Shown: piece after piece, positions 55,301-58,777 of the stretch
Layout of the letters: each line of letters starts with the position of its first letter
How positions within the stretch are numbered: position 1 is the stretch's first letter
NCBI GenBank assembly: GCA_026770705.1
Contig: JANJGN010000021.1
Coordinates: 99,634,001-99,698,000 of the forward strand
Source: Isurus oxyrinchus
Lineage: Eukaryota
DNA: 64,000 nt
Direction: 5' to 3'
Made by a program: the position numbers and the translations under genes
Notes under the pieces: model-generated
What the model saw: only the letters and a program-made list of their open reading frames with translations
The model's database searches: none
Told to the model about the DNA's origin: nothing

Positions 55301-58300
55301 TAGTACAGTAAACACAGGACCCATTGAATCCTAGAAGAGTACAGTATTACAGAACCCCATGAATCATAGGATAGTACAGTATGTCAGAAGCCAGTTAATT
55401 CTGATAGTACAGTACGACAGGACCTTGTGAATCCTGCAATCATACAGTATGACAAAAAGCAGTGAATTGTAGGATATTAGAGTGTAACAGAACCCTGTGA
55501 ACCTGGGGACAGTACAGTATCACAGCAACCAGTTAATCCTGAGATAGTATAGTATGACAGGACCCAGTGAACCCTGAGAGAGTACAGAATGACTGAAGTC
55601 AGAGAATCCTGGGATAGTACAGTATGACAGGAGCCTGTGAATCTTGGGATAGTACAGTATGACAGGAACCAGTAAATCCTGGGATAGTTCAGCATGACAG
55701 AAACCAGTGAATCCTGGGATAGTATAGTATGACAAGGCCGCCTGACTCCTGGGATCGTACAGTGTGACAGAAACCAGTGAATTCTGGGCTAGTACAGCTT
55801 AACATCAGTGATTGGAACAATAATGTAATCTCTGCTAAAGGAGAAAATAGAAGAACATCTAGAAAGAAAGAACATGTATATGAATGGTCAACACGGATTT
55901 TAAAAGGGAAAATCTTTTTTGGCCAACCTTATTCTATTTTTGAGGAGGAAACAGAGCGAGAGAGAGAGAGTACACAAGAATGATGCAGTAACTTTAATTT
56001 ATCTGGATTTTTAAAAGACCTCTGATAAGCTGCCCCATAATAGAGTCAGAGAATATGGAGCCAGGGGACAAGTGACATAATGGATTGCTAGCTGGGTTCA
56101 AGAGAGAAAGCAGAGAGAGTAAAGGATAGTTATTCAGAGTGTCAGAAGGTGGGAAATGGTGTTGCACACAGATCAGTGCTGGGACCAATGCTGTTCACAA
56201 TTTACATTAACGATTTGGACTTTGGAAATAAAAACACAATTTCTAAATTCATGGATGACACCAGGTTGGGACGGAGAATCAATACTGAGGAGGACTGCTG
56301 CACATTACAGGAGGACAGTAATAAACTTGTATAATTGGCAAATGAAGTTCAACACAGATGTGAACAAGTACATTTTGGTAGGAAGAATAGGGAGGTGAAT
56401 TATTACTTGGAAGCTGCGAGTCTGGATGGGATAGAGGAACAAAGGGATCTGAGAGTAGAAATACATCAATCAGTAGAATTTCCACCGCAGGTGAGGAAGG
56501 ACATAAAAGATAAAAACAATCCAGCACTAAGTTTTAATTCTGGAGGGATAGAATTGAAAAGTAGGGAAGCGATGCTAAACCTGTGTCGAACCTTAATTAG
56601 AGCATCCTTATAGTACTGTGTGCAGTTCTGGTCATGATATTGTAACAATGATATCGAGGCACTGGAGAGGGTGCAGAGAAGATTCACAATAATGATCCCA
56701 GAAATGCGTGGGTATACATATTGGGAAAGGATTCACAGGTTGGGTCTCTTTTCTCTTGAAAAATGAGGCTGAGGTGTGACCCAATATCTTTAAAATGATG
56801 AAAATGTTTCAATAAAGTCGATACAAAGAGGATTTTCTTCCTCTAGGAGCCATCGATATAAAATAGTGACCACAAAATCTTAAAGGGAGTTCAGAAGAAA
56901 CTCCTTTGCCCAGAGAGCAGTGAGAATGTGGAGCTCAGTACCACAGGGAGTGGTTGGAGCGGATAGTGTGGACGAGTTTAAGGGGAAGCTGGACACCCAC
57001 ATGAGGGAGAAGGGAACAGAGGGTTACGATGATGGAAAGAGATGAGGAAAGATGGGAGGAGGCTGGAATGGACTGGTCAGGCTGAATGGCCTGTTTCTGT
57101 GCCTTATAACCCAACATAATCCTGATTTTCTCACTGATTCTCTCTCGCTCTCTCATTCATTCCCTCTCACTCATGCTCTTTCTCTCTATCATTCCATCTC
57201 TCTCCCTCTCCATCTCTCCCTCTGTCTCCCTCACTTTAATATCACAGAACCAAAGTCTCAGTCCCAGGTTCCTGTTCCGGTTGGGATTATACTCGGGATC
57301 GTCGGGATCATCACTCTCACCGTTGTGGCTGTCGTCATTTATAGGAAGAAAGGTAGGAATTGCAGCTAATACAGGGAAGCATGCTATATATCTTCTTACC
57401 CACATTATTGACCTGTCCTGGCACTTTTACCTGTCTGTGGGTTTCCACTCCAAGGTCCCTCTGTTCCTCCACATTACTCAGTATTTACCCCCCATTTACT
57501 GGAGGTTCCCTTTGCCTTGTTGCACCTCCGAAAATGCATTACCTCACACTTCTCCAGGTTGAATTCCATTTTCCATTTTTGTCCCCAACTAACCAGACCA
57601 TCTCTATTTTCCTGCAGCTTGAAGTATTCCTCCTCACTGTCAACCACACGGACAATGTTTGTATCATTGCAAACCTCTCTATCATTCCCCCTATATTTCA
57701 ATTGAAATTATTCATATAAACTACAAAAAGAAAGGCAGTGAGTGCAGAGCCTTGTGAAACATGCACTGGTAACAGCCTTCCAATCACAAAAACACACTTA
57801 ACCCTTGCTTCCTGTCACTGTGCCAATTTGTCACTGCCCTTTCGGTCCCAAGGGCTCTTACTTATCTACCCAGCTTGCCATATGGGACCATATCTAAAGC
57901 GTTGTTCAAATCCATGTTGACCACATCCACTTCACTGCCCTCATCAACCCTCCTTGTTACCTCTTCAAAAGATTCAATCAGTTTAACCAGAGATGATGTT
58001 CCCTTTCCAAATCCATGCTGACTTTCCTTGATTAAACTACGTCCTTCTAAATGAAGGTTCTTCAAAATGAATTCCAATAATTTTCCCACCACTGATGTTG
58101 AACTAACTTGTCTATAATTCCTCAGTTCTTCAATCCTGTTCCCCGACTCCTGTGGTCAGGCAGGAATGATTATGATGGTCAGAGTCTCTACAATTTCCTC
58201 CCTTGCATCTTTTAACAACATGGTGATTTGTCTACTTTCAAAGACATCAACTCCATTAATAGTTCCTCTCTTGCAATGTTTATCTCATTCACCCATTCAC

Positions 58301-58777
58301 ACTCTTCTTCCTGAACCACATCTTTGTATCATCATAGGTCCCCTGTTTTCCACAGACAGTTGCCAAGTCTTCATTAAGAACCTTACCACATCCTCACACA
58401 GGTTATCTTGTTGATCTCTGATAGGCCCTCCTCTTTCCTTTGTCACCCTCTTGCTCTTTATGTACTTATAAAATGTTTTTGGATGTTCCTTGATTTTACT
58501 TGCATATATTTTTTGATGTCCTCTCTTTGAGCTCCTAATTTCCCTTTTAATTTCACCCCTAGACTTCCTGTCCTCTTCCAGGTTTCTGCAGTTTTAGGTG
58601 TCGGGTGTCTGCTGGGTTTTGTTGTGGGTCTAATGGATTTTGTTGGGGGTGTTGTGGGTCTGCTGGGTTTTCCTCTTTCTCTAACCATGTATTTCTTTCT
58701 CTTCCCCAGTGTCCTCCCAGGTCCTGACCAGTAATCCAGGGATATCAGTTCCCGAGATCAGTGGGAGGAGTGGATGA
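46306..58777 (+). CDS. non-classical MHC class I alpha chain, copy 2 (intact, 339 aa predicted)
   Basis: join(46306-46354,50545-50805,50982-51254,52564-52827,57248-57352,58710-58777) is 1020 nt, with all introns GT-AG phase 1 and no internal stop. The last exon is inferred from homology. Confidence 0.85.
46356..46560 (+). repeat. about 62-bp tandem repeat (x3) starting at the leader-exon donor
   Basis: TGAGTAATGGGGTCTGAGAGGGGCAATGTCAGTCTGGGTACTGGGGAATTAACCCTGGGTCA units. Confidence 0.75.
47021..48323. mobile_element. Penelope-like element, inverted configuration, with GIY-YIG endonuclease remnant
   Basis: About 47630-48323 on + reads DRVPLVLTFHP...FTCTFINLVYCIRCSQC..TGETKRRLGNRFAEH. 47021-47625 is an inverted 3' end. 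TSD ATTGATTCTAT(C/G)AAA at 47006-47020 and 48324-48338, within a minus-strand CR1. Confidence 0.85.
50545..50805 (+). CDS. MHC class I alpha1 exon (copy 2)
   Basis: [38 protein letters not shown]...WERKT...LMARTNQSG, with the conserved NQS glycosylation site. Confidence 0.95.
50982..51254 (+). CDS. MHC class I alpha2 exon (copy 2)
   Basis: GIHTYQVLYGCDL...GWDGRDFMSFD...KNKWD...YLEVECVQWLMKYLEYG, both cysteines present. Confidence 0.95.
51245..52497 (+). repeat. 24-bp G-rich minisatellite filling the alpha2-alpha3 intron
   Basis: About 52 copies, in homogeneous sub-blocks of GAGGGTCGGTGAGTGAGGGGGTGT. Confidence 0.95.
52564..52827 (+). CDS. MHC class I alpha3 exon (copy 2)
   Basis: LSCVVTGFYPQAIEVTLWRDG...LPNHDRTYQ...YSCRVEHSGL. 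Confidence 0.95.
53005..55798. repeat. 35-bp satellite (GTGAATCCTGGGATAGTACAGTATGACAG[AAACCA/GACCCT])
   Basis: About 80 diverged tandem copies, the source of the repetitive minus-strand ORFs. Confidence 0.92.
55800..57110 (+). mobile_element. CR1-type LINE fragment
   Basis: ORFs 56149-56334 (SVLGPMLFTIYINDL...FMDDT) and 56335-56613. Confidence 0.8.
57248..57352 (+). CDS. MHC class I transmembrane exon (copy 2)
   Basis: EPKSQSQVPVPVGIILGIVGIITLTVVAVVIYRKK, AG/GT bounded. Confidence 0.92.
57363..58600 (-). mobile_element. CR1-type LINE fragment (contains the empty provirus site)
   Basis: ORFs 57474-57701 and 57862-58092. TTCACACTCTTCTTC at 58296-58310 has a single CACT. Confidence 0.85.
58710..58777 (+). 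CDS. terminal exon coding portion (new cytoplasmic tail, copy 2)
   Basis: A strong polypyrimidine acceptor gives VSSQVLTSNPGISVPEISGRSG*. AATAAA candidates at 59324 and 59364. Confidence 0.55.

Follow-up and report, generated by a model that had tools for sequence, protein, structure and literature searches.

Internalisation of classical MHC class I molecules is controlled by two small cytoplasmic exons, one carrying a tyrosine and one rich in serine, according to the cited portions of PMC4950430 and PMC12518231. The same portions report that in mammals the exon 6 tyrosine is required for endolysosomal trafficking and cross-presentation, and that loss of exon 7 slows internalisation. In the non-classical molecule HLA-G, an early stop codon within exon 6 leaves a tail of six residues and an untranslated exon 8, and this short tail confers a longer surface half-life (PMC3021195, in the sections cited). 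In sharks, UBA constitutes an expanded class I family derived from UAA (PMC12562908, in part), and what shark non-classical class I lineages do is described as unknown in the excerpt of PMC10751288 used here. A literature search found no account of shark class I or UBA genes that lose tail exons or take a tail from UTR; the primary UBA, UDA and UEA papers and Bartl 1997 may discuss such cases.

We analysed a 64,000-nt window of Isurus oxyrinchus contig JANJGN010000021.1 (C21; positions 99,634,001 to 99,698,000), which contains two tandem MHC class I genes, copy 1 and copy 2; coordinates below are those of the window and of its plus strand unless stated otherwise. Copy 2 (46306-58777) is an intact, predicted non-classical gene of the shark UBA lineage that comprises a leader exon (46306..46354), alpha1 (50545..50805, best solved relative PDB 6LUP), alpha2 (50982..51254), alpha3 (52564..52827) and a connecting peptide/transmembrane (TM) exon in phase 1 (57248..57352). 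All five exons are in frame and bounded by GT-AG sites, and with the terminal acceptor at 58710 they give a 339-aa ORF, in agreement with the initial annotation of an intact class I gene. The promoter of copy 2 aligns with that of a sister gene, paralog B, at 340 identical columns out of 404, and both contain a CCAAT motif (46191..46195 in copy 2), which we take to be a possible Y-box. Two repeats are also found in both genes: a tandem repeat of ∼24-25 bp extends from the alpha2 splice donor (51244-52482), so that the donor motif is multiplied, and a repeat of ∼35 bp occupies the alpha3-TM intron (53000-55800).

The closest named proteins to copy 2 came from great white and basking sharks. In a quick tree of 65 rows, rooted at the midpoint and built without P0004, P0007, P0042, P0045 and proteins outside 270-420 aa, a lamniform clade (support 100) lay inside a group of 57 rows, itself supported at only 81, that included P0031, whereas gene D, a UAA-like gene at C21 66.1 Mb, stood apart. 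The alpha3-TM region of the public protein P0006 was 77% identical to P0031, and alpha3 of copy 2 was 59% identical to that of gene D. By sequence, copy 2 thus falls in the shark UBA lineage, apart from UAA. At the sites equal to Y59 and T143, which we take to be the numbering of the residues that bind the peptide termini, copy 2 and B carry S and F, and gene D carries Y and T; by these replacements copy 2 and B are predicted to be non-classical. P0031 is nurse shark UBA (AAC60347), labelled Gcirratum_UBA in the portion of the PMC10751288 supplement consulted. C21 carries ANATO domains (100.39 and 101.03 Mb) and a nuclear-receptor zinc finger (95.42 Mb), with another class I cluster (98-99.3 Mb) between; if these domain matches are taken as candidate genes, the arrangement fits loosely with synteny to the UBA cluster, which is flanked by c4 and rxrb and lies apart from the class Ia region. 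Gene D lies 0.7 Mb from a proteasome-subunit exon.

Within this lineage, the history of copy 2 differs from segment to segment. In the tree, the whole protein and P0006 did not form a pair; alpha2 of copy 2 matched that of P0006 at 67/90 positions and those of basking shark proteins at 78/90. The absence of pairing, together with the low alpha2 identity to P0006, indicates that the family recombines and that orthology is segmental. Public protein P0001 joins a tail like that of copy 2 to an ectodomain and TM resembling those of B.

The genome retains a full-tailed sister of copy 2. Paralog B (C21 ∼100.082-100.100 Mb, minus strand), 400 kb away, is intact and encodes 339 aa, ending in the tail of great white XP_041068271.1 bar its last residue. 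The copy 2 and B proteins share 84/87 residues in alpha1, 63/90 in alpha2, 86/89 in alpha3 and 29/35 in TM, and what remains of the tail intron differs between the genes by ∼10%. Synonymous divergence (dS) from B reaches 0.27 in alpha2 (50982-51254) and 0.03-0.12 in the other exons, an excess pointing to exchange of this exon among UBA paralogs. The dN/dS of ectodomain plus TM was 0.58 overall, 0.27 in alpha1 and 0.43 in alpha3, values that derive from few sites.

Comparison with B defined the loss of the tail exons to the base. A genome search with a query spanning the junction matched B at one site with bases 1-128 and 6.2 kb further on with bases 129-166. Window position 57362 equals B 20305 and position 57363 equals B 26551, so copy 2 lacks 6,245 bp relative to B; the junction is blunt, with 0 nt of microhomology on either side, and is flanked on both sides by sequence colinear with B. 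Along with the Tyr exon (33 nt) and the Ser exon (36 nt), the deleted segment, as judged from B, included some of an antisense LINE and a ∼3.6-kb tandem repeat. The corresponding stretch of copy 1 (13809..19567) contains the counterparts of both exons, the Tyr (GYNP) exon at 14441..14473 and the Ser-rich exon with its stop codon at 14821..14868. The initial annotation had derived the event from copy 1, reading the TM exon (57248-57352), ten nt of donor intron and then sequence equal to copy 1 from 19568; this structure holds, with 73% identity over 808 nt. Its claim that the GYNP Tyr exon and the Ser-rich exon were lost is likewise borne out, both against B and by the searches for relocated copies described below.

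Two other accounts of the junction were considered and rejected. A microhomology-mediated deletion, prompted by the motif CAGCT in copy 1, was ruled out by the blunt junction with B. Relocation of the tail exons was ruled out by a genome-wide search, in which the GYNP exon had four matches in the whole assembly, none inside copy 2, and by a six-frame scan of the 16,648 bp downstream of copy 2, in which no tail-exon motif was found.

The deletion left the splice sites on both sides in place. The retained 5′ splice site and the first 10 nt of the former post-TM intron (57353..57362) now adjoin the 3′ portion of the former last, UTR intron (57363..58709), giving a hybrid intron of 1,357 nt. This residual portion is largely an antisense LINE fragment, 90% identical to B, with weak minus-strand RVT_1 matches under the Pfam cut-off. 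To rank the candidate sites we used a small PWM whose training set was 24 acceptors and 21 donors from these class I genes. The TM donor after 57352 is unaltered and ranked first of 75 GT sites (score 10.5). The acceptor at 58710 ranked first of 54 AG sites with a score of 16.1 (runner-up 9.4), a lead to be read knowing that the training set contains two homologues of the terminal acceptor and is biased in favour of 58710. Public gene models with the terminal-exon tail use the acceptor equivalent to 58710. It is therefore likely, on these sequence criteria, that the TM exon of copy 2 splices directly to the last exon at 58710 in this animal.

Splicing at 58710 would bring the terminal exon into frame (58710..58777), adding a tail of 22 residues and a stop codon; these are the last 22 residues of P0006. 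A weaker alternative AG at 58719..58720 (PWM 8.1) would give a tail of four residues. The three tails that had been predicted from the 58710 acceptor, from the alternative site (GPDQ) and from intron read-through all translate as proposed; the 58710 acceptor is favoured, and the GPDQ and read-through tails occur in 0/8 lamniform models. The predicted 22-residue tail contains no Tyr and no Lys and matches no YxxPhi, dileucine or KKxx motif; the TM exon keeps its two juxtamembrane lysines. The stop codon would lie in the last exon, and nonsense-mediated decay is not expected. The 3′UTR (58778..59369) carries AATAAA at 59324 and 59364. In place of B's proximal poly(A) hexamer, AATAAA, copy 2 has AATAGA (58852), a weakened signal, and the hybrid intron contains a single ATTAAA and no AATAAA.

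The last exon is 3′UTR in B, copy 1 and gene D, because in each of them the Ser exon ends in the stop codon. The description of the copy 2 tail as former 3′UTR is thus correct for its sister and these relatives. The tail is not new, since it recurs in the gene models of other sharks and its frame is already open, if latent, in the undeleted last exon of B (19/22 residues identical to copy 2).

The same tail is annotated in public shark proteins, all of them computed gene models. Several isoforms per gene in NCBI models would be expected to reflect aligned transcripts or spliced reads. The C-terminus of great white XP_041069110.1 is the copy 2 tail, VSSQVLTSNPGISVPEISGRSG, at 22/22 residues, and its TM matches that of copy 2 at 34/35; in isoform X2 of this gene, alpha3 is joined to the same terminal exon and the product is predicted to be soluble. 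A second great white gene, XP_041068578.1, has the tail at 21/22, and both genes are annotated with the terminal-exon tail alone, among the cluster members listed. One basking shark gene (XP_078422897-899) is modelled with three ends: TM to Ser exon (X1), alpha3 to Ser exon (X2) and TM to terminal exon (X3, 18/22). Together, X1 and X3 represent the two exon uses within the models of a single gene. A second basking shark gene, XP_078422902.1, carries only the terminal-exon tail (19/22). Outside this clade, horn shark XP_067865827/829/830, on a separate branch, use the same frame (7/15 and 7/22 identical), as does a soluble isoform of cloudy catshark XP_072331372.1 (11/22, ungapped); the horn shark and catshark tails stop at other positions. 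TM-skipping UBA models that are predicted to be soluble occur in great white shark, basking shark and catshark (P0004, P0007 and P0049).

Five of the eight lamniform models end in the terminal-exon frame; two end in the Ser exon but lack the Tyr exon, and one has a full tail. A wider homolog search retained 45 proteins among 291 candidates, and 13 of their clusters were opened to give 70 proteins, which were sorted by pattern: 45 had a Tyr tail, nine the terminal-exon frame and 16 other ends. The nine represent ∼7 genes in four species. By the same pattern, the terminal-exon tail was found in 0/146 new class I proteins among the 50%-identity representatives.

Because B has the frame open, and because a skipped isoform is among the models of a basking shark gene still possessing its Ser exon, the deletion is likely to have made permanent an isoform that skipping had produced before. 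We consider it somewhat probable, as our best explanation, that the blunt deletion leads to splicing of TM to the last exon, that the resulting 22-residue, Tyr-less tail fixes this older isoform, and that the usual internalisation signal is thereby lost. As the gene models suggest, skipping into the last exon would have come first; after duplication a blunt deletion, probably by end joining, would have made the skip obligatory in copy 2. The product would reach the surface with a motif-less tail and, by extrapolation from mammals, could undergo slower endocytosis and reside longer at the surface, as HLA-G does. The two paralogs now differ in the form they encode, B specifying the full tail, which copy 2 cannot.

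Class I sequences elsewhere on the contig are in varying states of preservation. Copy 1 (10264-14868) is a pseudogene: a 7-nt frameshift interrupts alpha2, and its leader exon was not found by BLAST. Copy 1 and B agree at 99% of positions in the Tyr exon with its flanks and at ∼70% in the TM exon, which suggests recent conversion of the Tyr exon. The terminal (UTR) exon of copy 1 lies at 26625..26800, with the skip frame shifted. An inverted partial duplicate of copy 1 alpha3, 93% identical, is found ∼500 bp downstream of that exon (11975-12198), and the last intron holds an LTR element (20586-26158) with LTRs of ∼507 bp that are 92% identical; an integrase C-terminal match on its minus strand is weak and under the Pfam cut-off. 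Between the two genes, the interval 31500-37700 contains long ORFs, two of which gave empty Pfam scans; by eye they resemble what we take to be a decayed Harbinger-type transposon. Alpha3 is multicopy on C21: among 35 matches, five exons were at least 93% identical and one was 74% identical. Paralogs F and H contain stop codons. Paralog H (C21 96.34-96.36 Mb) retains a leader, a broken alpha1, alpha2, alpha3 with a stop codon and the terminal exon, with no match to TM or tail exons, and possibly represents an independent, larger exon loss. In region C (C21 100.17 Mb), the tail exons are present, no TM match was found in the 20 kb upstream, and the Ser exon is without its usual donor; an isolated alpha3 exon lies at C21 93.22 Mb.

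Such broken copies (the alpha2 frameshift of copy 1, the stops of F and H) raise the possibility, which we hold to be rather unlikely, that copy 2 illustrates neutral decay: UBA tails would be under little constraint, a redundant paralog would tolerate the damage, and read-through of UTR sequence would account for the 22 residues, which would have no function. The tail itself gave no signal of selection. All three differences from B in the tail frame are non-synonymous (3/3), the 68 nt of the terminal exon are only slightly more conserved than expected from the intron rate (P = 0.09), and an indel-free stretch as long as the tail exon is likely to arise by chance (P = 0.57). Of five terminal exons examined in the assembly, moreover, three have lost the skip frame through a shift (those of copy 1, gene D and paralog H), and the differing stop positions of the horn shark and catshark tails are also in keeping with decay. 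Against it, the ORF and promoter of copy 2 are intact, and two great white genes (among the cluster members listed) are annotated with the terminal-exon tail alone. Among the lamniform users of the tail (five sequences), every one of the six variable positions falls within the first ten residues and the last 12 are invariant, a clustering with P = 0.02 that was assessed post hoc on related, non-independent sequences. Neutral decay can be combined with the splicing part of our best explanation.

The order of events may also be reversed, as the initial annotation held when it took the deletion to have created the tail. A single deletion in a lamniform ancestor would then have made the tail, and skipped isoforms elsewhere would be minor splicing noise. 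The derived state at tail position 2, which is Ser in copy 2 and both great white genes and Ala in B, gene D, horn shark and catshark, fits an old shared 3′ haplotype of this kind. We nevertheless regard this order as improbable: the frame is open where nothing has been deleted, the terminal-exon tail is annotated in a basking shark gene that retains its Ser exon, and it is also used by horn shark genes, which branch separately. An assembly artefact, or a private or silent allele, is very improbable: the junction occurs just once in the assembly, but no N and no repeat common to both ends was found at the copy 2 breakpoints, which argues against a collapsed-repeat misassembly, the breakpoints are devoid of homology and their flanks colinear with B, and a great white model combines a near-identical TM with an identical tail.

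The structural change is real and well resolved, and its functional effect is a prediction. The tail motif of B is YNPT, and YXXA is found in gene D only; carrying the mammalian cross-presentation role over to UBA is for this reason weakly founded, and we infer only weakly that trafficking of the copy 2 protein would be altered. Copy 2 and B, at 84/87 and 86/89 identical residues in alpha1 and alpha3 and with wholly different tails of equal length, offer a natural test pair for whether the class I tail tyrosine already governed trafficking in cartilaginous fish. It also illustrates, at base resolution, how UTR can turn into obligatory coding sequence; the locus is of value in this respect too. 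A broader proposal, which we offer tentatively and would not expect to hold in full, is that the last exon of UBA has a dual use: it would serve as 3′UTR in the full form and, on skipping, as a conserved Tyr-free tail or soluble end, in three shark orders, repeatedly hard-wired by exon loss, with paralogs split into endocytosed and surface-retained forms in a manner similar to HLA-G and independent of it.

Altered tails are common in non-classical class I, as in HLA-G, and in this respect the locus follows a known theme; the change of tail exon is older and more widespread than had been thought from the window alone. Similarly to HLA-G, copy 2 is a non-classical class I gene whose tail, as predicted from sequence, is without a Tyr or dileucine endocytosis motif; it differs from HLA-G, to which it is not orthologous, in the physical loss of two exons from the DNA and in a last exon that is predicted to be coding. 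It shares with exon 7-skipped classical class I and the Y320 motif (cited portions of PMC4950430 and PMC12518231) a cytoplasmic region of modular, alternatively spliced micro-exons. Those isoforms omit one exon at the RNA level, whereas copy 2 has lost both in DNA and reads a new frame. Each paralog keeping one ancestral splice form recalls the separation of isoforms after duplication (PMC4494069, in part), a study that, in the part cited, covers mutually exclusive homologous exons; here the skip is into UTR, and the ancestral isoform is one we infer from gene models. Among fish, the non-classical salmon genes Sasa-ULA, ZBA and UHA1 have lost or spliced out 3′ exons (PMC2846915, as excerpted), but they lose the TM region and are soluble, while copy 2 retains its TM exon. 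Another close system is the shark UBA lineage itself (AAC60347; PMC10751288 and PMC12562908, in the portions cited), with which copy 2 shares its clade, a multicopy cluster, altered peptide-anchoring residues and possibly the proximity of a candidate complement C3/C4/C5-type gene, and from which it departs in its tail, the nurse shark and horn shark sequences AAC60347/AAC60348 retaining the Tyr and Ser tail that copy 2 has lost.
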